From positions 1 through 43,613 of the IMG/VR virus record IMGVR_UViG_2654587728_000013: a DNA stretch of 43,613 nucleotides; one strand, 5' to 3'. The position numbers and the translations under genes were made by a program. The DNA comes from a virus (taxonomy: Duplodnaviria; Heunggongvirae; Uroviricota; Caudoviricetes). The notes under the pieces were generated by a model that worked only from the letters and a program-made list of their open reading frames with translations, had not been told where the DNA came from and ran no database searches. Of the stretch, positions 1,019 through 39,689 are shown in pieces (position 1 is the first letter of the stretch; every line of letters begins with the position of its first letter).

Positions 1019-1179
1019 TCTGCACCGCCTTTCACGAAAATGTTCATCAGCTCAGCAATGCGCTGAGCCTTTAATGGGTTTTTGATAACCTTTCTGCCTG
1101 GCACAATCCATCCGCAACGAAGAGCTGAATAAACCAGCGTGATGCTACCTACGCGGATATTGTCGTGAGGGTTAGTCAT
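1015..1179 (-). CDS. small hypothetical protein
   Basis: ORF 1015..1254(-); start trimmed to MTNPHDN to avoid overlap with upstream gene; stop overlaps methylase start. Confidence 0.3.
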   Translation of the reverse strand: MTNPHDNIRVGSITLVYSALRCGWIVPGRKVIKNPLKAQRIAELMNIFVKGGAE

Positions 1180-1471
1180 ACACCACCCCACGACATCCGA
1201 TCCCTGCATATTCGCCTCGGCGCAGGCCGTTACCTCTCGATATGCACTGATCACGGCGTATCGCTATTCTGGCGCGTTCAACCTCACCGACTGCTGCATC
1301 CATGCACAGCAACCAAAGCCTGGCTGCAATGCGGAACTGGCCTTTCGATTCTCGCTCAACAGCGCGCTTTTCTACCTCCATCGCCGCAGGAGTTACGGCG
1401 ACAACCTTTGAAGCCTGACGCTGAGACACATAGTTCAGGTGATACTTTTCAAGACGGGTTAATTTGCTCAT
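1172..1471 (-). CDS. hypothetical protein
   Basis: ORF 1172..1555(-); likely start MSKLTRLEKY at 1471. Confidence 0.45.
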   Translation of the reverse strand: MSKLTRLEKYHLNYVSQRQASKVVAVTPAAMEVEKRAVERESKGQFRIAARLWLLCMDAAVGEVERARIAIRRDQCISRGNGLRRGEYAGIGCRGVVYD

Positions 1472-1580
1472 CGGATCCAGCCTTCTCTGAAAATTACCGC
1501 CAGCAGATACAGCCAGGCGGAAACGGCGGTCAGGAATAAGTACCATCCTGACCATTTTTCCCAGTGCCTGATCAGCGCTG

Positions 1581-5032: not shown

Positions 5033-5188
5033 ATTACCATTTTGGTAATACCTGGAGATGCAGGAAAACCACGAAGTGGTGGTTTCTGCCTGAGCGATGC
5101 GCTCATGTATTACCTTTTGGGTAATAATCAGATCAAAAAGTGATTGTGTCAATAGGTATGACGAGAAAAAAATTACCGTTTTGGTAAT
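5033..5188. promoter_or_regulatory. OL-like operator triplet: ATTACC-N5-GGTAAT at 5033..5049, 5109..5125, 5172..5188
   Basis: Three perfect 17-bp palindromes spaced 76 and 63 bp; minus-strand TTGACA (5147-5152) 17 bp from GATTAT overlapping site 2. Confidence 0.6.
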
Positions 5189-5895: not shown

Positions 5896-5959
5896 ATTAC
5901 CATAAAGGTAAAGTTACCATAACGGTAATAATCATTGATTTTTTCACCAGAAAGGTAAT
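5896..5959. promoter_or_regulatory. OR-like operator triplet: 5896..5912, 5913..5929 (TTACC-N5-GGTAA) and 5943..5959 (TCACC variant)
   Basis: Divergent intergenic region between repressor and Cro-like gene; plus-strand TTGATT (5935-5940) then TAATAA/ATAATT about 17 bp downstream overlapping third site. Confidence 0.6.
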
Positions 5960-5997: not shown

Positions 5998-6231
5998 ATG
6001 AGTGACGAAAAAAAATTTGATTTCAAAAAGCACTGGCTGGGACTGTCTCCTGATGAGCGTGAAGCATTTGCAGATGAAGCCGGAACCACCAGTCATTACA
6101 TCCAGACTCACCTGACCGGGCGCCGCAAGATGCCGGGTAAGCGACTGATGGACGGGCTGTTTAAAGCATGTCGCTCCCGCGAATGGACAAAGTCTAAACC
6201 TGAATTAGTGCTCTTCTTCTACGACCGATAA
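5998..6231 (+). CDS. Cro-like HTH regulator
   Basis: 77 aa; first rightward gene divergent from repressor; HTH-like segment AGTTSHYIQTHLTGRRKMPGKRLMDGL. Confidence 0.5.
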   Translation: MSDEKKFDFKKHWLGLSPDEREAFADEAGTTSHYIQTHLTGRRKMPGKRLMDGLFKACRSREWTKSKPELVLFFYDR

Positions 6232-6379
6232 CCCTCCCTGAACCCATCAATGCCGTCATTACCTGGCGGCTCCTTCCTGCATAAAACACCTTTTCGGTAA
6301 TAAAAAACCATATACGGTTGATCTTTTTTTCTTCCTGCATCAAAATCATCGTAATAGTAAACGTTAATGAGGTTGTGCA

Positions 6380-6580
6380 ATGGAGATTATTACTCGCCTT
6401 GACGCTGCAAAGGCAGGTCTTAAGCGTTATTACACCGGAAAACAGTGTAAGCATGGTCATGACAGTGAGCGCTACGTTTACAACGGGCACTGCGTTACAT
6501 GCGCCATCAACACGAGCCTGCGCCGCCAGGCAGAAATAAAGCAGCTCATGGCCGAAGCCAGCCTGCAACACTCAAGCTGA
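6380..6580 (+). CDS. small zinc-binding protein, possible CII-position regulator
   Basis: 66 aa; Cys/His cluster CKHGHDSERYVYNGHCVTC; position between cro-like and replication genes. Confidence 0.35.
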   Translation: MEIITRLDAAKAGLKRYYTGKQCKHGHDSERYVYNGHCVTCAINTSLRRQAEIKQLMAEASLQHSS

Positions 6581-6595
6581 CGACAGGTATTTACC

Positions 6596-7414
6596 ATGAG
6601 CAGATACGCAACAGAGTGGGCATGGAAAACAAATCCGGGCAGCTCATCACTGAAACTCATCCTGCTCTCGATGGCTGATCGAGCCGATGAATACAACCTG
6701 TGCTATCCAAGCATCGAACGCCTGGTTACCGACACAAGCCTGAATAAAAAAACAGTTCAGGCTGGTCTTATTTCGCTCATCGGAATGGGGCTAATTTCAG
6801 ATACAGGAGAAAGAAAAGGGGCAACAAGAAGGGTCCGGGTTTTCTCTTTAAACATACCCAAAAACGGTAATGTTACCAATATTGGGAATATACCCAAAAA
6901 CGGGAAGTTGAATGATCCCAAAAACGGGAAGTTGAATGATCCCAAAAACGGGAAGTTGAATGATCCCAAAAACGGGAAGTTGAATGATCCCAAAAACGGG
7001 ATGCAGAACCTATCAGTTAACCAGTCATATAACCAAGAGAAGGAGAGGGGCGATAAAACTGGGGGTTTAGTGCCTCAGAGGACTGACGCTAACAACGCCG
7101 TGATTAACAACTTTGTCCCTCCTGGTGGACTGGGGCAATTCGGGAAATTTGTCATGCATGAGCACTGGTCACCATCGGATGATTTCCTCCGGGTGTCTTC
7201 ATTGCAGGGCATTAACCTGGATTGCCAGCCAACGCCACAGGAGCTTGCAGAGTTCAGGGTTTACTGGATGGCCGAGGGTAAGGCTTTCCACCATGCGCAA
7301 TGGGAGCAAAAACTTGCCAGACGTCTGCAGATCAGCAGACAGAACAAACTTACCTCACCTGAAAACAACGTACCGCACTGGAACAGTCCAGAGGCGTGGG
7401 AGGATTTCCTGTGA
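6596..7414 (+). CDS. replication initiation protein (lambda O-like) containing the origin iterons
   Basis: 272 aa; N-terminal HTH-like domain; internal PKNGKLND x4 repeats encoded by DNA iterons; followed by P-like gene. Confidence 0.75.
   Translation: MSRYATEWAWKTNPGSSSLKLILLSMADRADEYNLCYPSIERLVTDTSLNKKTVQAGLISLIGMGLISDTGERKGATRRVRVFSLNIPKNGNVTNIGNIPKNGKLNDPKNGKLNDPKNGKLNDPKNGKLNDPKNGMQNLSVNQSYNQEKERGDKTGGLVPQRTDANNAVINNFVPPGGLGQFGKFVMHEHWSPSDDFLRVSSLQGINLDCQPTPQELAEFRVYWMAEGKAFHHAQWEQKLARRLQISRQNKLTSPENNVPHWNSPEAWEDFL
6857..7000 (+). repeat. origin-like iteron array: 4 perfect 24-bp direct repeats (6893..6988) plus flanking partial copies
   Basis: CCCAAAAACGGGAAGTTGAATGAT x4, with CCCAAAAACGG partials at 6857 and 6989; lies inside the O-like gene as in lambda ori. 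Confidence 0.75.
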
Positions 7415-8232: not shown

Positions 8233-8249
8233 ATTACCAAAAGGGTAAT
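8233..8249. promoter_or_regulatory. operator copy ATTACC-AAAAG-GGTAAT
   Basis: Perfect TTACC-N5-GGTAA in intergenic region upstream of resolvase gene. Confidence 0.5.
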
Positions 8250-8294
8250 AAAATATGCGCATTGCTATTGAAATTAACCCATTTGTGGTTTTAA

Positions 8295-8311
8295 ATTACC
8301 TGAGAGGTAAA
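8295..8311. promoter_or_regulatory. operator copy ATTACC-TGAGA-GGTAAA overlapping RBS of resolvase gene
   Basis: Perfect TTACC-N5-GGTAA ending 3 bp before ATG at 8314. Confidence 0.5.
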
Positions 8312-10314: not shown

Positions 10315-10653
10315 ATGGCTAAATCCGCAGCAGAGCGCAAAGCAGCGCAGCGTGCCCGCCAGGCTGAATCTGGTAACCGCAAGCTGGAATTGCAACTAGA
10401 CGAGCAGGAACTGGAGATGCTGGCGAGAAACTGCGCCGCCCGTCGCCCTGGTCGGGCGCCGTATGACATGAACGAGTACATCGCGTTGCTTATACGCCAG
10501 GATGATGCGCGGGTTCGTGGGCGCATCAAGTCAATCAGCTCTAACCGTTGCGGGAAATGTGGCGATGCGCTGCCAGTTGAGTCGTGTCCGTGTGATGGTG
10601 ATTCGGCATGCTGGGTGACGCGTGGCTGGCATGATACTAAACTAGCGGTGTGA
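10315..10653 (+). CDS. hypothetical Cys-rich protein
   Basis: ORF 10267..10653 trimmed to MAKSAAERKAAQ; C-terminal CGKCGD...CPCDGDSAC cluster; last gene before terminase. Confidence 0.45.
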   Translation: MAKSAAERKAAQRARQAESGNRKLELQLDEQELEMLARNCAARRPGRAPYDMNEYIALLIRQDDARVRGRIKSISSNRCGKCGDALPVESCPCDGDSACWVTRGWHDTKLAV

Positions 10654-10720: not shown

Positions 10721-10737
10721 ATTACCAAAACGGTAAT
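10721..10737. promoter_or_regulatory. operator copy ATTACC-AAAAC-GGTAAT upstream of terminase genes
   Basis: Perfect TTACC-N5-GGTAA between terminator and small terminase start. Confidence 0.5.
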
Positions 10738-10756
10738 TATTACTTCGGTGGTAACA

Positions 10757-14250: not shown

Positions 14251-14267
14251 ATTACCTAAAAGGTAAT
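14251..14267. promoter_or_regulatory. operator copy ATTACC-TAAAA-GGTAAT upstream of portal operon
   Basis: Perfect TTACC-N5-GGTAA about 90 bp upstream of small ORF 14357. Confidence 0.5.
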
Positions 14268-14356
14268 ATCTGATGTTATAAGTGTCAATAGCCTACGCTA
14301 AATAAATCATATGTGGTTAAATTGGTAATAATTTAATTGCGTACGGAGCTATTGCT

Positions 14357-14563
14357 ATGTGTATCGGCAGCAAGCCATCAGTGCCAGCAGCGCCAGAAGT
14401 ACAGGCTGCGCCACAGGAGCAGGATGCAGCAGTTGTCAGTTCTCGTGACGACGAAGAACGCCGCCGCCGTGCAGCAGCAGGACGCAGTTCCACTCTGCTG
14501 ACTGGTGCTCAGGGTGACACCTCAACCGCAAACACCAGCGGTAAAACGCTGCTTGGTCAGTAA
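14357..14563 (+). CDS. small low-complexity protein preceding portal
   Basis: 68 aa; RBS GGAG 8 nt upstream; Ala/Gln/Arg-rich; could be spurious. Confidence 0.35.
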   Translation: MCIGSKPSVPAAPEVQAAPQEQDAAVVSSRDDEERRRRAAAGRSSTLLTGAQGDTSTANTSGKTLLGQ

Positions 14564-19695: not shown

Positions 19696-19711
19696 GCCTC
19701 GCTAATCAAAC

Positions 19712-19733
19712 AAGGGGCTTCGGCCCCTTTATT
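19712..19733 (+). terminator. rho-independent terminator/attenuator
   Basis: AAGGGGC-TTCG-GCCCCTT followed by TATT. Confidence 0.6.
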
Positions 19734-24170: not shown

Positions 24171-26792
24171 ATGCCAACAGTACCAACAGTCACCGGTCGA
24201 CAGGTAGAAAGCAGAGGGTTTCAGTCTCCTGGGTTTCAGGCATTCGATCAGCCAAATATCGGTGATGCTATCGTCGACGCTGGCAGCAAAGCCATCAACG
24301 TATTTGGAGAGGCCAAGCAACGGGCAAATGTGGCACTTACCCAAGAGGCAACTCTTCAACTGAATGCGGTTGGCAACGATCTGCTAAATAACCCTGATTC
24401 AGGATTCATGAATCTGCAAGGGAAGAACGCGATCGGCAAGGGGCAGGAGTACGTGCAGCAGTTTGATTCTCAGGCGCAGAGCATTGCAGCAAGCCTGCCG
24501 GATGAGCAGGCGCGAAATGCGTTTCTTCAGCAGGCACAGCAGCAGAGAATCCAGTTCAAGACGACCGCTGTTCGCCATGAAGTTGGGCAGGTGCGTCAGT
24601 ACGAAGCAGGTATGCAGGAGGGAACGTTACGTTCGCTGGCACAGCAGGCGATTTCTCCTGGTCTGTTTGTTCCTGCATTGATGAATGCTCGTAATTCTAT
24701 TATCGCTTATGGGAAAGCCCACGGACAGAGCGATGAGGAAATAGAGTCTAATTTCGTGCAGTGGCGTGAGCAGGCCGCCAACCGCGCCAGCGAAGCATGG
24801 TATACACCAACCTATCAGCAAATCATGGGGCCGGAAGGTAAGATCGAAGTTACCGACACTCCGAGCGAATCGCAGCTTTTTTCCGCGATGATCTGGCAGG
24901 AATCCGGAGGTAATCAGTATGGCAAAGACGGTTTACCACTGGTATCTCCGAAAGGTGCAGTAGGGGTGGCGCAGGTGATGGAGGATACGGGGCCGGAAGC
25001 AGCACGACTGGCTGGCGTACCGTGGGATCGTGATAAGTGGCTGAACGATACGCGCTACAATGCGAAGCTTGGTCAAGCCTACTTCGGCGCGCAGATGAAG
25101 AAGTATGACAATAATCCTGTACTGGCGGTGGCGGCGTATAACGCTGGGCCAGGTGCGGTTGATGGATGGATAAAGCAGTTTGGCGACCCGCGTACTGGTG
25201 CGGTGAGCAATGAGCAATTCGCTGCGGCAATCCCTTATGATGAAACTCGCAACTATGTCGCGAAAGTAACCGGCAGCGCTCCGGCGATACCAGGAACTGC
25301 TACGATGGAAAACCTCATCAATCAGCCTTTCTGGGATGCGATGAGTCCGCAGAACAAATCAGCGATGATGAGCAAAGTGGCAGGCATGTACGATATGCAA
25401 GCCGCAGCTGGTCGCGTGTCATTGCAAAGCCGCATGCAGGATGACCTTGCTAAATTAGAGTCAGGACAGAAAGTTAACCCGATCTCGGAACGTGAGTGGC
25501 TGGCGGTCATGCCGTTGCAGGCAAGCCCGGCGGAGCGCATTCAGATGCGCGAGTCATTCCAGCAATATCAGCAGGCGATGACGCTGCAACCGGTATATCA
25601 ATCCATTGTTCAGGGTTCTGCGCAGCAGGGTATCGCTGCGGTGCAGTCTATGGTGCCGCAGGAAGATGACCCTGACTTTAAATTTAAGCAGAGCTTGTAC
25701 GCAACTGCGCAGGCCAAACTGAATCAGGTAATTAAAGCGCGCGAGTCCGACCCGGGTACGTGGCTACAAGCCAACTCGCCGGTGGTGAAAAACGCCTTTG
25801 AGCAATATCAGAACAACCAGGCATCAGGTGAATATCTGGTTTCCCGTCTGCAAGCAGAGAAAGACCGCCTTGGTATCAATAGTAAGAAGGTACTTCCTGA
25901 CGCCATGGTTAACAACCTCATTTCTCAGATCGATAACAATAAAGAATCAAGCGTAACCGCCATTCAGTCGGTGGCGCAGTCGTTCGGAAAATACTCCGAT
26001 CAGGTTATGCAGCAGGTGCAGAAAAGCGCATATCCAGCGCTTCAAGTCATCATGGCGACCAATAATCCTCGGGCCGCCAACGCGCTCTGGCAAAACCGCA
26101 GTGTTAAAACTTCTGACCTGCGCGGCAGCTTTGAGAAGACAGACGCCGACAGCGCTGATTCATCTTGGAATGACCAGGCAAAAGATTTTGCCGGGACGAT
26201 GGTTGTACAGCCTGGCGGGTCTGCCGTGTGGAACAACTTCAACGAGCAGGGTAAACGCCTGACCTACACCTATATGCAGCGCGGCATGTCGCCTGGCGAT
26301 GCAGCAAAACAGGCATATCAGGACGTTCTCGGTGAGCAGTATCAGACCAATGGCACCTGGCGTATGCCTAACAACGCCGGGCATGATATTCGTGACGTTA
26401 ATGACGGCGCTAACGTGTACCTGAAGAATCTGTCAGCAGATCAGATCATGCCGCTAATCGGTGACGCCCGTCTGCCGGATGAGGTTAACCGAGAGCAAAG
26501 TATTTCCCGCATTCGTGATAACGCACAGTGGGTAACCAACAGCGACGAAACAGGGCTTACGCTGATGATGAATGGTCTGTTGATCAACAATGCGCAGGGG
26601 CAGCCGATTACAGTTTCGTTTGCTGACCTCGCGAAACTTGGCGCTGGCAACCGTACAACTTGGAACAGCCTGACCAAATTCGTGCAGACGCCGGTTAAGT
26701 ACACTCCGGGCCAGTCGAAGAATTACACGGTAGAAAGTCAGCGTGAAAATCTGATCAACATTATCCAGAACGGCCAGCAGACGGGACGATAA
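24171..26792 (+). CDS. internal virion protein with lytic transglycosylase (SLT) domain
   Basis: 873 aa; WQESGGNQYGKDG...GVAQVMEDTGPE...AAYNAGPGAVDGW matches SLT signature. Confidence 0.75.
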   Translation: MPTVPTVTGRQVESRGFQSPGFQAFDQPNIGDAIVDAGSKAINVFGEAKQRANVALTQEATLQLNAVGNDLLNNPDSGFMNLQGKNAIGKGQEYVQQFDSQAQSIAASLPDEQARNAFLQQAQQQRIQFKTTAVRHEVGQVRQYEAGMQEGTLRSLAQQAISPGLFVPALMNARNSIIAYGKAHGQSDEEIESNFVQWREQAANRASEAWYTPTYQQIMGPEGKIEVTDTPSESQLFSAMIWQESGGNQYGKDGLPLVSPKGAVGVAQVMEDTGPEAARLAGVPWDRDKWLNDTRYNAKLGQAYFGAQMKKYDNNPVLAVAAYNAGPGAVDGWIKQFGDPRTGAVSNEQFAAAIPYDETRNYVAKVTGSAPAIPGTATMENLINQPFWDAMSPQNKSAMMSKVAGMYDMQAAAGRVSLQSRMQDDLAKLESGQKVNPISEREWLAVMPLQASPAERIQMRESFQQYQQAMTLQPVYQSIVQGSAQQGIAAVQSMVPQEDDPDFKFKQSLYATAQAKLNQVIKARESDPGTWLQANSPVVKNAFEQYQNNQASGEYLVSRLQAEKDRLGINSKKVLPDAMVNNLISQIDNNKESSVTAIQSVAQSFGKYSDQVMQQVQKSAYPALQVIMATNNPRAANALWQNRSVKTSDLRGSFEKTDADSADSSWNDQAKDFAGTMVVQPGGSAVWNNFNEQGKRLTYTYMQRGMSPGDAAKQAYQDVLGEQYQTNGTWRMPNNAGHDIRDVNDGANVYLKNLSADQIMPLIGDARLPDEVNREQSISRIRDNAQWVTNSDETGLTLMMNGLLINNAQGQPITVSFADLAKLGAGNRTTWNSLTKFVQTPVKYTPGQSKNYTVESQRENLINIIQNGQQTGR

Positions 26793-26793
26793 T

Positions 26794-28500
26794 ATGCCGA
26801 TTTATACAGATGACCCAGGGCAGGGAATAAACCAGCCGCTGTCGAATGCCCCATCAGGGCTTGGTGAATCGCTGCTTTCCTCCCTGAAAGAGGGATTCAA
26901 AGAGGGGCCTGTTGTGTCAGGTTATCGGTTTTCTCAAGCCGACCAACTGGCAAATGACCCAAATTCGACCATCGTCAGTAAATCTGACGCGGAAACACGC
27001 CTTAAAGAGTACGGCGTTAAAAGTATCAATGTGCCTGACGGCGGTGTTACACAAACATTCCTCGACCATGTGATCAGCGAGCGCAGAGAAACTCTGGCGA
27101 AGCAGCAGATCGCCATGTCTGCCCCGTCTGGATGGGTTGCCACTCCGCTTAACTTTGCCGCAAACCTTGCAGGATCAATGGCTGATCCCGGTAACGTGGC
27201 TTTGGCGCTGGTCCCGTTCGGTGGAGAAGCAAAGGCGGCAACTATGCTTGGGCGCTTCGGTGAGCGTCTTTCCACCGGTGCTCGGCTTGGCGCTGCTCAG
27301 GCCATTGCCACCGTACCTCTGACGGCACAGGCAGCAGCGGCAGAAGGAGATGACTTCACATATGGCAACGCGCTGGAGAGCACCTTCTTTAACACCATCG
27401 CTGGCGGGTTGATGCACGCTGGCGGCGGGCTGATATCGGATGTGGTACGCTCCCGCAGGGCTGGTACTGTTGAAAATCCTGCTGCCTCGCAAGACGTTCA
27501 GCCTGTCGCTGATGCGCAGCCAACACCGGTGTTTACGCCTGACAATATACCGGCAGGCGTAAATATTCCTGAGTCCGGCACCAACGCCGATCTGTCAGCG
27601 GCAATCGCGCGGGATGCGGAAGCGTATGCCTACAGCCGCGCCTATGATGATGTTGTGCCGGAATATATGGCAAGGCAGCAGGAGCTACAGACAGGGAGCA
27701 TTGACAACGTTGCGGATCTGCGAACTGAGTTGGTGACCAACAACAGGCAAAGTGAGGCACTTGACGCAACTCTGGCCCAGCGCACGACCGATTACCAGGC
27801 GCAACGCATGAAATTCAAAGCAGCACGAGCCAGGGCGCAGCGAGATATTGAGGTTGAGAAAGACGCCATCACCGCGCGTAACCAGGAAATTACGCAACAG
27901 ATTGAACGTAATGCTGCAGCAGAGCAGGCAAAAGGCAGAGAGGCGCAACTGTCCCGCAAAGAGATACCTGACGACTTGGCGCCGTTGATAGCCCAGCGTG
28001 CGCAACAGATTCGCGAAAGCATGCAGATGTCGCCTGTGGCTGGCGCAGTGCGCACTGCGTCGGCAGCGGTTCGTGAGGCTGACTGGAGCGTTAACCAGCA
28101 GGCGTATCGAGGCGCACTGGCGCACATGATGGAAGGGCGCTCGCCTGATATTGAGCCATTCTATGATCTGCACAAACCAGCTCTACGCGAGCGTGCTATC
28201 CAGCGCATACAAAATCCGGTGCGGCAGGCTGATGAAGGTTCCCGCGCCGTCAGTGAAAGTGCGGATCGTGTGTGGCAGGATACGCAGAAGGTTGACCATG
28301 AAATAACAGCGGCTACCGCTGATCTGGAAAATGAATTTAATATCAGTGATGCGCTGCTGAACGACATTGCCACTGACAATCCTGACCTGGCTGCGTCGAT
28401 GCGGGAGAATATTGCAGCGATCCGTGCAGAGGCCAGTGACGACTCTATCGGAAAAGCGTACCGCGCTTTCGCCGCCTGTCTGATTAACCGGGGGCTGTAA
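26794..28500 (+). CDS. internal virion / ejection protein (putative)
   Basis: 568 aa; in injection-protein block. Confidence 0.5.
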   Translation: MPIYTDDPGQGINQPLSNAPSGLGESLLSSLKEGFKEGPVVSGYRFSQADQLANDPNSTIVSKSDAETRLKEYGVKSINVPDGGVTQTFLDHVISERRETLAKQQIAMSAPSGWVATPLNFAANLAGSMADPGNVALALVPFGGEAKAATMLGRFGERLSTGARLGAAQAIATVPLTAQAAAAEGDDFTYGNALESTFFNTIAGGLMHAGGGLISDVVRSRRAGTVENPAASQDVQPVADAQPTPVFTPDNIPAGVNIPESGTNADLSAAIARDAEAYAYSRAYDDVVPEYMARQQELQTGSIDNVADLRTELVTNNRQSEALDATLAQRTTDYQAQRMKFKAARARAQRDIEVEKDAITARNQEITQQIERNAAAEQAKGREAQLSRKEIPDDLAPLIAQRAQQIRESMQMSPVAGAVRTASAAVREADWSVNQQAYRGALAHMMEGRSPDIEPFYDLHKPALRERAIQRIQNPVRQADEGSRAVSESADRVWQDTQKVDHEITAATADLENEFNISDALLNDIATDNPDLAASMRENIAAIRAEASDDSIGKAYRAFAACLINRGL

Positions 28501-32418: not shown

Positions 32419-32435
32419 TTTACCTTTGAGGTAAT
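32419..32435. promoter_or_regulatory. operator copy TTTACC-TTTGA-GGTAAT over RBS of small ORF
   Basis: Perfect TTACC-N5-GGTAA. Confidence 0.5.
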
Positions 32436-33457: not shown

Positions 33458-33474
33458 TTTACCGTAAAGGTAAT
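33458..33474. promoter_or_regulatory. operator copy TTTACC-GTAAA-GGTAAT in antirepressor promoter region
   Basis: Perfect TTACC-N5-GGTAA. Confidence 0.5.
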
Positions 33475-33504
33475 AATAAACGCATTATGTAGGTTATTTC
33501 AACC

Positions 33505-33840: not shown

Positions 33841-33857
33841 ATTACCTGTAAGGTAAT
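33841..33857. promoter_or_regulatory. operator copy ATTACC-TGTAA-GGTAAT between antirepressor paralog and tailspike
   Basis: Perfect TTACC-N5-GGTAA in divergent intergenic region. Confidence 0.5.
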
Positions 33858-33962
33858 AAAGTATGTGTTCATTCCTCATTAGGTTCATATAAGGTTTTTA
33901 TGGTAATACAATGATTCAGAGTGCATGCGCGCCGGGCGCAAAAGCAATCTGGAGAAAATGAC

Positions 33963-36732: not shown

Positions 36733-37698
36733 CTACTGTCCTGTAGAAATAATTAAAGGAATACCATTTATTAAATTGAAGTAACTTTTATATCCAACAA
36801 AGAAAGCAGAAGGATACTTATCACTCACATTTAATCTTTTCCCTAATCCGTATTTAGTGTCTAACCATACCACAACTTCATCATTATGTTTGTTCTTTGC
36901 AGTCATGCGGTAAACATTTGGATATTTACCCTTAGGGCCACTATCATTTGGTCCGCTGGAGGTGTCTTTCCATTCTTGAGAGTCACCTGATTCATAACAA
37001 ATTGAACTGTTAGCATACAGTTGGGAAAGTGCAGTTTGTAGTCCGTAGTAAGTGTGTATCCTCACCTTTTCAAGGGGAACCATTTTGATATGCACATCTG
37101 CACGTCCTTCATTAAATTTCATTTTTACTTTCTGTTGAATAATCTCTCTACCAGAACCATCTTTCTTTTTGGTGTTAAAGCCCTGTATGTTAGACGTAGT
37201 TTCTATCACTAAATCATTTGTATACCCCTTAAATGTATCATTGACCATCTTCCCATCTACCCATACCTGAAGAGAAACATGCCTGGCTGTAGGAGAGCCA
37301 CTCTGGTTCCCATTAAACCCATGCCAGCCACCTGTGAACTCAGCTATTGGGTCATCACCATCTTCATTACTTTCTGCGCTGACCATAATTGGTCCAATGA
37401 TGTCCGTGTCGAATGTTTGAACTGTCGTTAACCCATCCAGTCTGCCACTGGGAAAATCTGTATACTTCCAAGAAAAATTTTTGTAAATCCTTGAAAATGA
37501 AAATATTTTGTTAAGACCAGTTCTATTAAGCTCAATTACCCGGTCTTCAAGTAGTGAATATTTGTACTGAATTTTTATGTCTGCGTTCGGAACATCAACA
37601 CTAACGTACTGTTTTTCTTTTGCAACATCCTCAGACGCTGTTCCTGCTAACGTGCAAGCTATGATGATAAACAAAGAAATTGATATCGTTTTTTTCAT
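36733..37698 (-). CDS. predicted lipoprotein, function unknown (AT-rich moron)
   Basis: 321 aa; signal peptide with lipobox-like IIAC; low GC; convergent with tailspike. Confidence 0.55.
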   Translation of the reverse strand: MKKTISISLFIIIACTLAGTASEDVAKEKQYVSVDVPNADIKIQYKYSLLEDRVIELNRTGLNKIFSFSRIYKNFSWKYTDFPSGRLDGLTTVQTFDTDIIGPIMVSAESNEDGDDPIAEFTGGWHGFNGNQSGSPTARHVSLQVWVDGKMVNDTFKGYTNDLVIETTSNIQGFNTKKKDGSGREIIQQKVKMKFNEGRADVHIKMVPLEKVRIHTYYGLQTALSQLYANSSICYESGDSQEWKDTSSGPNDSGPKGKYPNVYRMTAKNKHNDEVVVWLDTKYGLGKRLNVSDKYPSAFFVGYKSYFNLINGIPLIISTGQ

Positions 37699-37816
37699 GC
37701 CAATTTACCCGAAAACAATCTTGTAGTAATCATAACTTTTCTGTGCATTTTTTTCATTTTGTTAGATTTATCCACAAATAATGTGTAGAAACTCGCCAAG
37801 AGTGTCATAGTTTATT

Positions 37817-37834
37817 TAAACCATATATGGTTTA
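37817..37834. promoter_or_regulatory. 18-bp perfect palindrome TAAACCATATATGGTTTA
   Basis: In divergent promoter region between lipoprotein gene and lysis cassette. Confidence 0.4.
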
Positions 37835-37894
37835 TTGTGTATGATGTGATCACCAACTAATGGGGGTCTTTATGCACAGTAAACGGTGGTCACC

Positions 37895-38299
37895 ATGTCA
37901 GCCCAGCTAACCAGTGAGTCTTTAAATCAGTGGCTTAGTATGGGTTCTCTGGCTGCAGTGATCGCAGGAGTTCCACCCGAAGTGGCGCTTGGTGCTTTAT
38001 CAGGTGCGGTAATATTTATTACCTCAGCCGTTGAGTATCCAATACGCCGCCGGGTTCTCCTGTCGATGCTCAGCTTCCTCTGCGGGCTTCTATTCTACAA
38101 ACCAACTGCATCAATCCTTATCGGCGTAGCCAGCCTGATCCCAACTATCACACAGGATTCATTCGAGAAAGGGATCGTCTTCTCTGCTGGCGCGTTCGTG
38201 TCGGCAATCGTCGCAGTACGTATTGGTATCTGGCTCTATCACCGTTCCGACAATCCACGCGATTTAATCCCGGGGAGAAAAGACGATGACAACTCATGA
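37895..38299 (+). CDS. holin-like membrane protein (about 4 TM)
   Basis: First gene of lysis cassette; multiple hydrophobic helices; ORF track start is GTG at 37886. Confidence 0.45.
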   Translation: MSAQLTSESLNQWLSMGSLAAVIAGVPPEVALGALSGAVIFITSAVEYPIRRRVLLSMLSFLCGLLFYKPTASILIGVASLIPTITQDSFEKGIVFSAGAFVSAIVAVRIGIWLYHRSDNPRDLIPGRKDDDNS

Positions 38300-38594
38300 G
38301 CTGCTTTTACTGATTGCCAATGCGGTTATCTGTTCTGCGATAGCAATCCGCGTCGGAACCTTCCGGCGTAATGGATCGCAACACCGCCGGTGGGGTGGGT
38401 GGATAGCCTACTTCCTTATCGTGGCATCAGCCAGCATCCCCGTCCGCGCCGCATATGCAATCTGGTATCACACACCAATGGCCGCTGATTTATCAGAGGT
38501 CATCATCAATGCTGTCATGCTTGCCGCTGTTCTGAAGACGCGCGGCAATGTCGTGCAGATATTCAAAATATCGAGGTCTCAACATGGACATTAA
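38286..38594 (+). CDS. holin/antiholin-like membrane protein (3 TM)
   Basis: 102 aa; three TM helices, basic C-terminus; overlaps neighbours. Confidence 0.45.
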
Positions 38595-39210
38595 CCAGTT
38601 CCGGCTAGCAGCCGGTATTACTGAACAACTGGCCACGCGCTGGTACCCACACATCACCGCAGCCATGAATGAGTTTGGCATTATTAAACCTGATGACCAG
38701 GCGATGTTTATTGCGCAGGTCGGGCATGAGTCCGAAGGGTTTACCCGGTTACAGGAAAACTTCAACTACAGCGTTAACGGTCTGTCCGGGTTTATCCGTG
38801 CCGGGCGTATCACTCCAGACCAGGCCAACGCACTCGGCAGGAAAACATATGAGAAGTCTCTTCCTCTGGAGCGCCAGCGCGCGATCGCCAATCTGGTGTA
38901 CAGCAAGCGCATGGGTAACAACGGCCCAGGTGATGGATGGAATTATCGCGGTCGTGGACTTATCCAGATCACTGGTCTGAACAACTACCGGGATTGCGGT
39001 AATGGTCTGAAGGTTGATCTGGTCGCTCATCCTGAACTGCTGGCGCAGGATGAATACGCGGCCCGCAGCGCGGCGTGGTTCTTCGCCAGCAAAGGTTGCA
39101 TGAAGTACACGGGAGACCTAGTGCGCGTCACGCAGATTATCAACGGTGGCCAGAACGGTATCGACGACCGGCGAGCACGTTACGCCGCTGCTCGTAAGGC
39201 ACTGTTATGA
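38584..39210 (+). CDS. endolysin, glycoside hydrolase family 19 (chitinase-like)
   Basis: [17 protein letters not shown] and QVGHESEGF motifs; start MDINQF (ORF track 38548). Confidence 0.8.
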
Positions 39211-39689
39211 TCTGGGCATTCATCAAAGCGTACTGGAAACAGTTGCTTATCGTAGTGATGCTTGCGGCGCTGGTTATCGGTGGAGTGGTTGCGTGGAAGG
39301 ATAACGGCGACCGGAAGTATGCCGCCGGGTATGCTCAGGCGCAGGCAGACCAGAAACAGGCTGATGATAAAGCCCGTAAACACGACGAACAGGAGAAAGT
39401 GATCAATGAACGTGAAGCGCAGCAGAGGATCGACCAGGCGCGTAATGATGCTCTTGATGCTTCCGCTCGCGCTGGCCGGTTGCAGCAACAGCTCGTTGCC
39501 ATCCGTGAGCAGCTCAGGCAGTATAACTCCACTGTCGGCGCTGGGACGTCAGCCGCAGATACCGGCGTTTTGCTTACCGACGTGCTCAGCAAATCTCTCG
39601 AGCGAAACCGACAACTGGCAGAGTACGCTGACCGGGCCGCCGAAGCCGGAAGAGTCTGTGAAAAGCAGTACGATTCGCTGACTAGGTGA
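39207..39689 (+). CDS. i-spanin (Rz-like)
   Basis: 160 aa; N-terminal TM helix then Gln/Ala/Arg-rich coiled coil; follows endolysin. Confidence 0.7.
39406..39681 (+). CDS. o-spanin (Rz1-like lipoprotein) embedded in +1 frame
   Basis: 91 aa; RBS AGGAGA; signal peptide with lipobox LALAGC; Pro/Ser-rich; fully nested in i-spanin gene. Confidence 0.6.
   Translation: MNVKRSRGSTRRVMMLLMLPLALAGCSNSSLPSVSSSGSITPLSALGRQPQIPAFCLPTCSANLSSETDNWQSTLTGPPKPEESVKSSTIR

Follow-up and report, generated by a model that had tools for sequence, protein, structure and literature searches.

A palindrome upstream of the lysis genes of an epsilon15-like phage belongs to a recurrent 11-bp box, a candidate late-promoter element

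The perfect palindrome TAAACCATATATGGTTTA (37817-37834, without strand) lies before the lysis genes of an epsilon15-like phage (Uetakevirus) and was analysed in the context of the window, i.e., the whole stretch of 43,613 nucleotides of IMG/VR record IMGVR_UViG_2654587728_000013. The region matches epsilon15, SPN1S/SPC32H, phiV10, Tyrion, and PAS61, and window positions 37640-37900 are 100% identical to positions 2814149-2814409 of NC_011601.1, in a prophage of enteropathogenic Escherichia coli (EPEC) E2348/69. Two divergent genes border the intergenic region 37699-37894. On one side, the first gene of the lysis cassette (37895-38299, plus strand) encodes, according to homology and annotation, a membrane protein similar to gp23 of epsilon15, which is annotated as a putative holin and is 100% identical in epsilon15, SPN1S, and SPC32H. 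On the other side, a lipoprotein-like gene (36733-37698, minus strand), recognized as an open reading frame (ORF) with a signal peptide and an IIAC lipobox, constitutes a variable insert. An earlier note made from the letters of this DNA had described the palindrome as perfect, as situated in this divergent region at about 60 bp from the lysis gene and about 120 bp from the lipoprotein gene, and as unlike the immunity operator, and this description is borne out in every respect. The element is a 9+9 inverted repeat flanked by T on either side, with the symmetry ending at 18 bp. Its end is separated by 61 bp from the first ATG of the lysis cassette (37895) and by 39 bp from the start of a conserved mini-ORF (37873), its start by 118 bp from the divergent ATG (37698, minus strand), and the operator of this phage reads ATTACC-N5-GGTAAT, the same as annotated in epsilon15.

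The palindrome is the longest perfect one of the window; the second longest, CGCAGTGCGCACTGCG (8+8, 28044-28059), is located within a large structural gene. When the whole window was shuffled 300 times with its dinucleotides preserved, 17% of the shuffles also contained a palindrome with arms of 9 bp (mean of 0.17 per shuffle), so that perfect symmetry alone is not significant. The non-random signal is recurrence, not symmetry. If up to three mismatches are allowed, the 18-mer occurs at three sites in the window compared to 0.01 expected, a number reached by none of 100 shuffles, and the two extra sites, at 6304 and 14303, are both intergenic. The core CATATGTGGTT gave five matches in the window at up to one mismatch, with 0.61 expected; as this core pattern was derived post hoc, the search with the 18-mer serves as the unbiased test.

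The recurrent unit is an oriented box of 11 bp with the consensus yCATATGTGGTT, of which the core of the palindrome is one member. Copy A (AAAACCATATACGGTTGA, 6304-6321, core at 6309, without strand) is near-symmetric and follows the cro-like gene, copy B (CATTTGTGGTT, 8280-8290, plus strand) precedes the RuvC-like gene and lies between two repressor operators, copy C (CATATGTGGTT, 14308-14318, plus strand) precedes the operon of gp3, portal and head genes, copy D (CATATAAGGTT, 33886-33896, plus strand) precedes the tailspike gene, and copy E (CATATATGGTT, 37822-37832, plus strand) is the conserved core of the palindrome before the lysis cassette. At up to two mismatches, these cores (6309, 8280, 14308, 33886, and 37822) are the only intergenic matches in the window, all remaining ones falling in genes. 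The copies B to E are on the strand of the genes downstream, and A and E, being near-palindromic, match the opposite strand as well. A control of lysis or of its timing in particular, as the earlier note had suggested, is at odds with this distribution, since the same oriented box is also found before the portal/head operon, before the tailspike gene, and at two sites of the early operon. A further site at 33504 (CTTATGTGGTT) was set aside as a copy because, on the opposite strand, it encodes the end of the antirepressor gene, namely its final codons with the stop. Copy A is unlike the copies C to E: in the window (6304-6335) and seven relatives it is followed by GATC and a run of seven to eight T and preceded by an A run and a GGTAAT half-operator, and in the relatives from E. 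coli and Salmonella the pattern AACC-N6-GGTT is kept with varying inner six bases. Following the cro-like gene, it could act in both directions as a weak terminator, or it could be a regulatory site in its own right. The box is marked in none of the annotated records of relatives that were compared, and epsilon15 labels an overlapping stretch as 'RNaseIII'.

The conservation of the box was followed in eight complete genomes of phages from E. coli, Salmonella, and Klebsiella and, for copy E, in 23 unique variants that extend through the mini-ORF (IMG/VR and phage records) and six from GTDB genomes, which amount to 28 unique variants after removal of one duplicate. The positions of the box are kept in epsilon15, SPC32H, phiV10, HEMP4, PAS61, and the Klebsiella phages Kp4865-1 and BUCT711. 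All eight complete genomes have copies C and D at matching places, always oriented in the direction of the genes; copy C is identical including its flanks in seven of them and reads AATATGTGGTT between the same flanks in BUCT711, and the sequence of copy D is CATATGTGGTT in phiV10, HEMP4, and PAS61, whereas the Klebsiella phages have CATATATGGTT. Wherever the lysis cassette has intergenic DNA in front of it, copy E is found there. Conservation before the lysis genes of relatives, which had been named as a check on the palindrome, was thus found for the core of the box in most of the 28 variants. In the Klebsiella phage BUCT711 (L042, record positions 14525-14533), the lysis cassette begins 7 bp after the tailspike gene, with neither inserts nor a separate promoter region nor copy E; this layout may be the ancestral one. 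Accordingly, copy E exists exactly where inserts on the opposite strand separate the lysis genes from the tailspike transcript.

The comparison further divides the palindrome into a conserved and a variable part. Megablast similarity to relatives (epsilon15, SPN1S, Tyrion, and PAS61) begins at window positions 37813-37821, so that a mosaic boundary lies inside the palindrome. Upstream of the box, several unrelated sequences occur among the 23 unique variants, and the block CC(A/G)TATATGGTTTATTGTGTATGATG and all sequence downstream of it are near-invariant across the 28 variants. Within the palindrome, the right side with GGTTTA is near-invariant, and the left outer arm varies (CATTCC, TAATCC, ATAACC, TTACTCC, and others). 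Among 20 unique relatives that were aligned out of the 28 recovered, the perfect arms measure 0 to 9 bp, and 9 bp are reached in the window type only. The claim that the perfect 18-bp palindrome is the functional unit does therefore not hold; judged from this alignment, the full symmetry is specific to one lineage, and the outer left arm (TAAA), and with it the 18-bp symmetry, is probably incidental. A partial dyad may matter, since the 14-bp palindrome AACCATATATGGTT is retained in several variants.

Because the upstream gene is divergent, transcription of the lysis genes must start within 37699-37894, a region of which only the part 37821-37894 is conserved. Two -10-like hexamers on the plus strand follow the box, TATTGT (37833-37838), which directly abuts it, and TATGAT (37840-37845), 7 bp after it, and both have the A at position 2 and the T at position 6 that are typical of sigma-70 -10 elements. 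The former is kept as TAnnnT in all variants (TATTGT, TATAGT, TATTAT, TATGAT), the latter as TATGAT, TATAAT, TATCAT, or TACTAT in all except HEMP4 (CGTAAT), and in an alignment with copy C and the early promoter pR the latter corresponds to their AATAAT. Depending on which hexamer serves as the -10 element, the box would extend from about -30 to -20 (TATGAT) or from -23 to -13 (TATTGT). In sequence terms, it occupies the -35/spacer zone of the sole promoter able to serve the lysis genes. At copies E and C, a consensus scan called no plus-strand promoter of the sigma-70 type, and copy E has no usable -35 element: TAAACC, GTTTAT, and TTTATT match TTGACA in one to three of six positions and are not conserved. 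Copy C and pR share an identical -10 region, GGTAATAAT, which is preceded in pR by the -35 element TTGATT without a box and in copy C by the box in the -35/spacer position. Nothing ties the palindrome or the box to the lipoprotein gene. Most relatives lack this variable insert, which comprises the gene together with the DNA upstream of it; near the gene, the minus strand has a promoter-like site of its own (37757-37729).

The immunity operators share several of these promoters with the box. There are 13 operator copies in the window (ATTACC-N5-GGTAAT, up to one mismatch), with 17-bp sites at 5033-5188, 5896-5959, 8233-8311, 10721-10755, 14251-14267, 32419-32435, 33458-33474, and 33841-33857, which correspond to OL, OR, the antirepressor region, and sites upstream of the RuvC-like gene, terS, the portal operon, and the tailspike gene. 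Given the operators before terS, the portal, tailspike, and RuvC-like genes, the repressor seems to control late and middle promoters directly, in agreement with the annotation of epsilon15. Copies B, C, and D have a full operator 28-40 bp upstream; downstream of the box, a GGTAAT half-site follows at exactly 5 bp in C and D and a full operator at 4 bp in B. In most relatives, copy E is likewise accompanied by ATCACC-N5-GGTAAT about 30 bp upstream and an AGGTAAT half-site just before the box. In the window, 37699-37894 contains neither an operator at up to two mismatches nor a GGTAA/TTACC half-site, i.e., copy E has lost all operators and retained the box. That a lysogen should be stable with an operator-free lysis promoter speaks in favour of this promoter requiring a positive factor.

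We lean, if only modestly, towards reading the box as a recognition element of late promoters for a phage-encoded factor, common to several operons and not specific to lysis. It would stand at the head of the late transcription units, i.e., the portal/head operon, the tailspike gene, and the lysis cassette, and would be bound by a phage DNA-binding protein made during lytic growth, which would either recruit sigma-70 RNA polymerase or load onto the polymerase. Lysis genes and structural genes would thereby be activated at the same time, and the former would remain silent in the lysogen. The earlier note had suggested a late activator or a host factor. Of these, the site of a late regulator is the best available reading, but a host factor found no match: to our knowledge, none of the consensus sequences of IHF, Fis, CRP, DnaA, PhoP, TyrR, ArgR, LexA, and sigma-54 fits all copies, and the nearest one, the DnaA box, agrees with copy C only (8 of 9 positions). 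Promoters with a good -10 element, no -35 element, and a short upstream element repeated before late operons including lysis are also those dependent on Lpa of P1, Ogr of P2, C of Mu, and MotA of T4. In P1, the late element consists of a 9-bp inverted repeat and has its centre near -22; the MotA box of T4 is centred at -30. The present box differs from these in its unrelated sequence, in being oriented and partly symmetric, and in its distance to the -10 element, which varies by up to 3 bp. By analogy with P1, P2, Mu, or T4, whose late promoters depend on an activator, the arrangement may work in the same manner through a box of another sequence; for P1, expression from late promoters requires the phage protein Lpa (PMC8198154).

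Several observations weigh against a dedicated late-promoter element. The distance from the box to the best hexamers is variable: for copy E it is 0 or +7, for copy C -1, +8, or +10, and for copy D +7 or +10; with the best hexamers at +7 (E), +8 (C), and +10 (D), a common distance of +7 requires TAATAC/TAATAG at copy D. Moreover, the sequence at copy D would also pass for an ordinary sigma-70 promoter (TTCATA-17-TACAAT, 9 of 12 positions), the left end of the box being its -35 element, and copies A and B lack a convincing -10 element at the spacing of C, D, and E. In distant relatives from Klebsiella, Kluyvera, and other enterobacteria, the box of copy E is degenerate (CGAATGTGAAT, CAGATTTGGAT, CGCAAACGGAT), while the hexamers persist. 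Furthermore, an RNA hairpin that overlaps the palindrome shows some compensatory change, no regulator could be assigned to the box among the candidates examined, and a literature search yielded no data on transcription starts or binding, the papers on ZX5 and phiV10 being without promoter mapping. This outcome of the literature search, the variable spacing, the geometry of copies A and B, and the ordinary appearance of copy D are the reasons why our confidence in a late-promoter element is placed only a little above even.

One alternative is a plain weak sigma-70 promoter, possibly two overlapping ones, in which the box is a -35-like or spacer sequence copied by descent without a dedicated protein and the symmetry is due to chance. 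The frequency of 9+9 palindromes in the shuffles, the unconserved left arm, the promoter score of copy D, and the variable spacing between the box and the -10 element all fit with such an explanation. Nevertheless, we regard it as fairly unlikely: the consensus scan misses copies C and E, the -35 positions match TTGACA in only two to four of six positions, the 11 bp of copy C, identical between phages of E. coli and of Klebsiella and common to non-homologous promoters, exceed the need of a spacer, and an unregulated lysis promoter without operators would be harmful in a lysogen. A second alternative is that the box exerts negative control and shuts these promoters, either as the operator of a second repressor-type protein, e.g., the cro-like homologue of gp39 (5998-6228), or as a secondary contact of the immunity-repressor tetramer. 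Repressor sites tolerate a variable position relative to the -10 element, every copy except E of the window is close to immunity operators, copy A comes directly after the cro-like gene, and the cro-like protein is restricted to the genus apart from two matches in Psychrobacter phages. However, promoters without a -35 element would stay weak after removal of a repressor, copy E of the window keeps the box without operators, and a cro-type lytic repressor has no obvious reason to occupy late structural and lysis promoters, so that negative control appears rather improbable. The immunity operators of Uetakevirus (Rep of SPC32H/epsilon15) resemble the box in being a repeated palindromic element at the same promoters, late ones included, but their sequence is unrelated, and the operator is fully symmetric with both arms conserved, which the box is not. 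A further alternative is a loading site for an antiterminator of the Q or AlpA type, which would travel with RNA polymerase through terminators. In the lysis operon alpBCDE of Pseudomonas aeruginosa, the AlpA-binding element GGGACG extends from -25 to -20, and AlpA acts as an antiterminator (PMC7969949, PMC9371919). The location of the box resembles this element and the Q-binding element of lambda, both being short elements between -35 and -10; here, too, a lysis operon is concerned, the phage encodes a protein of the AlpA family (PF05930), a second -10-like hexamer follows the first, and the structural operon has an internal terminator (19711-19733). Even so, this possibility is very remote in our assessment. 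The AlpA-like protein of the window (82 amino acids, N-terminal helix-turn-helix) differs in architecture from the much longer AlpA of P. aeruginosa, in which an N-terminal ring-forming segment is followed by the helix-turn-helix with DNA contact residues at about 128-142 (PMC9371919). In addition, there is no functional -35 element for a constitutive basal promoter, and the second hexamer, 7 bp after the first, lies outside the initially transcribed region and is thus no correctly placed pause element. The hairpins of the leader are weak and variable (-6, -9.7, and -2.3 kcal/mol) and have no proper U-tract; for this weakness and inconsistency, a terminator in the leader ahead of the first gene was rejected.

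A different kind of explanation places the element at the RNA level. A long leader hairpin on the plus strand (37832-37882, arms 37832-37844 and 37870-37882) overlaps the right arm of the palindrome by three bases, and the 'RNaseIII' feature of epsilon15 (24755-24817) corresponds to window positions 37826-37888 and includes the right half of the palindrome. Such a hairpin could process read-through transcripts or control translation of the mini-ORF or the first lysis gene. Besides the annotation as an RNase III site, which is itself a prediction, this is supported by a predicted stem of 12-15 bp, present in the minimum free energy structure of the 101-nucleotide region fold, and by pairing in 99% of the cells (12 pairs, 20 variants), with one pair changed on both sides and three on one side. 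The pairing score exceeds that of 500 out of 500 shuffles, but the sequences are closely related. In HEMP4, four positions of the 5' arm are changed and all still pair, including one double change from G-C to A-U, and the inner helix between the Shine-Dalgarno sequence and its complement shows a change from C-G to U-A in four sequences. Covariation nevertheless remains thin, and the hairpin needs an RNA that starts upstream of 37832, where nothing is conserved upstream and the neighbouring gene is on the other strand. Its 5' arm consists of the two -10-like hexamers and would not be transcribed from them. The region fold has a z-score of only -1.46, PAS61, SPC32H, and variant L020 break pairs, as does variant L048 at 5 of 14 (manual count), with the hexamers staying -10-like, and the box copies C and D have no such hairpin. 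Folded alone, the box reaches -0.9 to -5.5 kcal/mol, and a search of Rfam 15 gave no family, the sole match being at chance level (24.4 bits compared with a threshold of 56, E = 0.13). An RNA-level element is hence quite unlikely as an account of the box, although the hairpin may be relevant in relatives with co-oriented upstream genes such as PAS61 and HEMP4, which alone would allow read-through. The box as an RNA hairpin, a nut-like site, or a terminator was discarded for its weak folds, a left arm that does not co-vary, and the lack of a proper U-tract except in copy A. The box is neither an immunity operator nor an intrinsic terminator nor a known RNA family.

In the reading as a late-promoter element, the phage itself would encode the protein that binds the box. 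Ten early and regulatory proteins were scanned against Pfam and PHROGs, and seven of them also against NCBIfam; none of the ten matched the Lpa, Ogr, C/Mor, or MotA families, and searches of PDB, Pfam, and NCBIfam with small candidate proteins yielded nothing usable. The gp49-like zinc-cluster protein (10315-10650), assigned to PHROG 536 ('transcriptional regulator') and encoded by the last early gene before terS, is disfavoured as a binder because an 86%-identical copy exists in the Citrobacter phage Omnitron, which has no other protein in common with the window; in Omnitron, box-like matches are found solely in long ORFs. Its homologue in a P2-like Yersinia phage is not Ogr, and the context of gp46 in N15 is uninformative. 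The gp40 protein (6380-6577) was rejected on account of its spread over unrelated phages of Vibrio, Xanthomonas, and Klebsiella. The PerC-like and AlpA-like proteins are found in 36 records each and are restricted to the genus, with the same distribution as gp23, and the cro-like protein occurs in 37 records, being restricted to the genus except for two distant matches in Psychrobacter phages. As these distributions are nearly equal, co-occurrence cannot choose among the three. The AlpA-like protein (1581-1829) matches PF05930 with 25.6 bits, its helix-turn-helix comprising residues 8-52. Pch/PerC proteins are described as small DNA-binding activators, with no DNA motif given (PMC4764244). That the box is the recognition site of the genus-specific PerC-like protein (1172-1552, minus strand), which would then be the late-gene activator of epsilon15-like phages, is a conjecture of low probability. 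If correct, the PerC/Pch proteins, known as prophage-borne virulence regulators of EPEC and enterohaemorrhagic E. coli, would gain a native function in the phage and a first defined target.

A late-promoter element of this kind would have several practical consequences. The box would mark the late promoters of the epsilon15/phiV10/SPN1S group, whose members are used as reporters and for their endolysins; epsilon15 is moreover a structural model phage, and relatives in the group are prophages in pathogenic E. coli including EPEC E2348/69. The 11-bp site would provide a handle for finding the late regulator of the genus and a way to put reporter genes under true late control, and it would correct the epsilon15 record, in which the stretch carries the RNase III label only. 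No principle is overturned thereby, as boxes before late promoters without a -35 element are well known in other phages.

The gene order of the window is that of a phage and not of an integrated prophage, with the integrase gene placed after Rz. The integrase gene is followed by the early leftward operon, the repressor gene, the cro-like gene, the replication genes, and terS/terL, and then by the operon from the portal to the ejection proteins, the tailspike gene, the variable insert, and the lysis genes. In the prophage of E2348/69, which is integrated beside yfgI, an additional acyltransferase gene is situated between the tailspike and the lipoprotein-like genes. The slot of the latter holds other genes in epsilon15, SPNIS2, Tyrion, PAS61, and SPC32H and represents an insertion hot spot, which in relatives is occupied by O-antigen modification genes (polymerase, acetylase, or translocase). 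Downstream of the gp23-like gene, the rest of the lysis cassette (38286-39689, plus strand) was assigned from ORFs and the annotation of the colinear genes of epsilon15 and E2348/69 and comprises a holin (38286-38594), a GH19 endolysin (38584-39210), Rz (39207-39689), and an embedded Rz1 (39406-39681).

Between the hexamers and the lysis cassette, the mini-ORF (37873-37911, plus strand) consists of 12 codons for the peptide MHSKRWSPCQPS, ending in a stop, and is preceded by the Shine-Dalgarno sequence TGGGGG (37861-37866), which is stronger than the one that serves the lysis gene. The mini-ORF is read in a different frame from the gp23-like gene and overlaps its start, terminating 14 nucleotides past the ATG at 37895. 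The ATG, the Shine-Dalgarno sequence, and a stop shortly past the ATG of the lysis gene are retained in all variants; even in HEMP4, where the peptide is frameshifted, the overlap with the lysis gene is kept. The arrangement suggests that translation of the first lysis gene is coupled to, or gated by, the mini-ORF.

Two further features of the window were recorded apart from the lysis region. The gene of the replication protein (6596-7414) contains a 24-bp tandem repeat (6893-7001) of 4.5 copies with 100% identity, which encodes PKNGKLND repeats and is adjoined by a degenerate 18-bp repeat (6854-6906); by analogy with lambda O, these repeats are possibly the iterons of an origin within the initiator gene. 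The middle part of the structural operon contains, between two genes, a GC-rich hairpin (AAGGGGCTTCGGCCCCTT, with TATT after it; 19711-19733), and at the corresponding position of epsilon15 a terminator is annotated for both strands. Late transcription can only pass this hairpin by read-through or else be attenuated at it.

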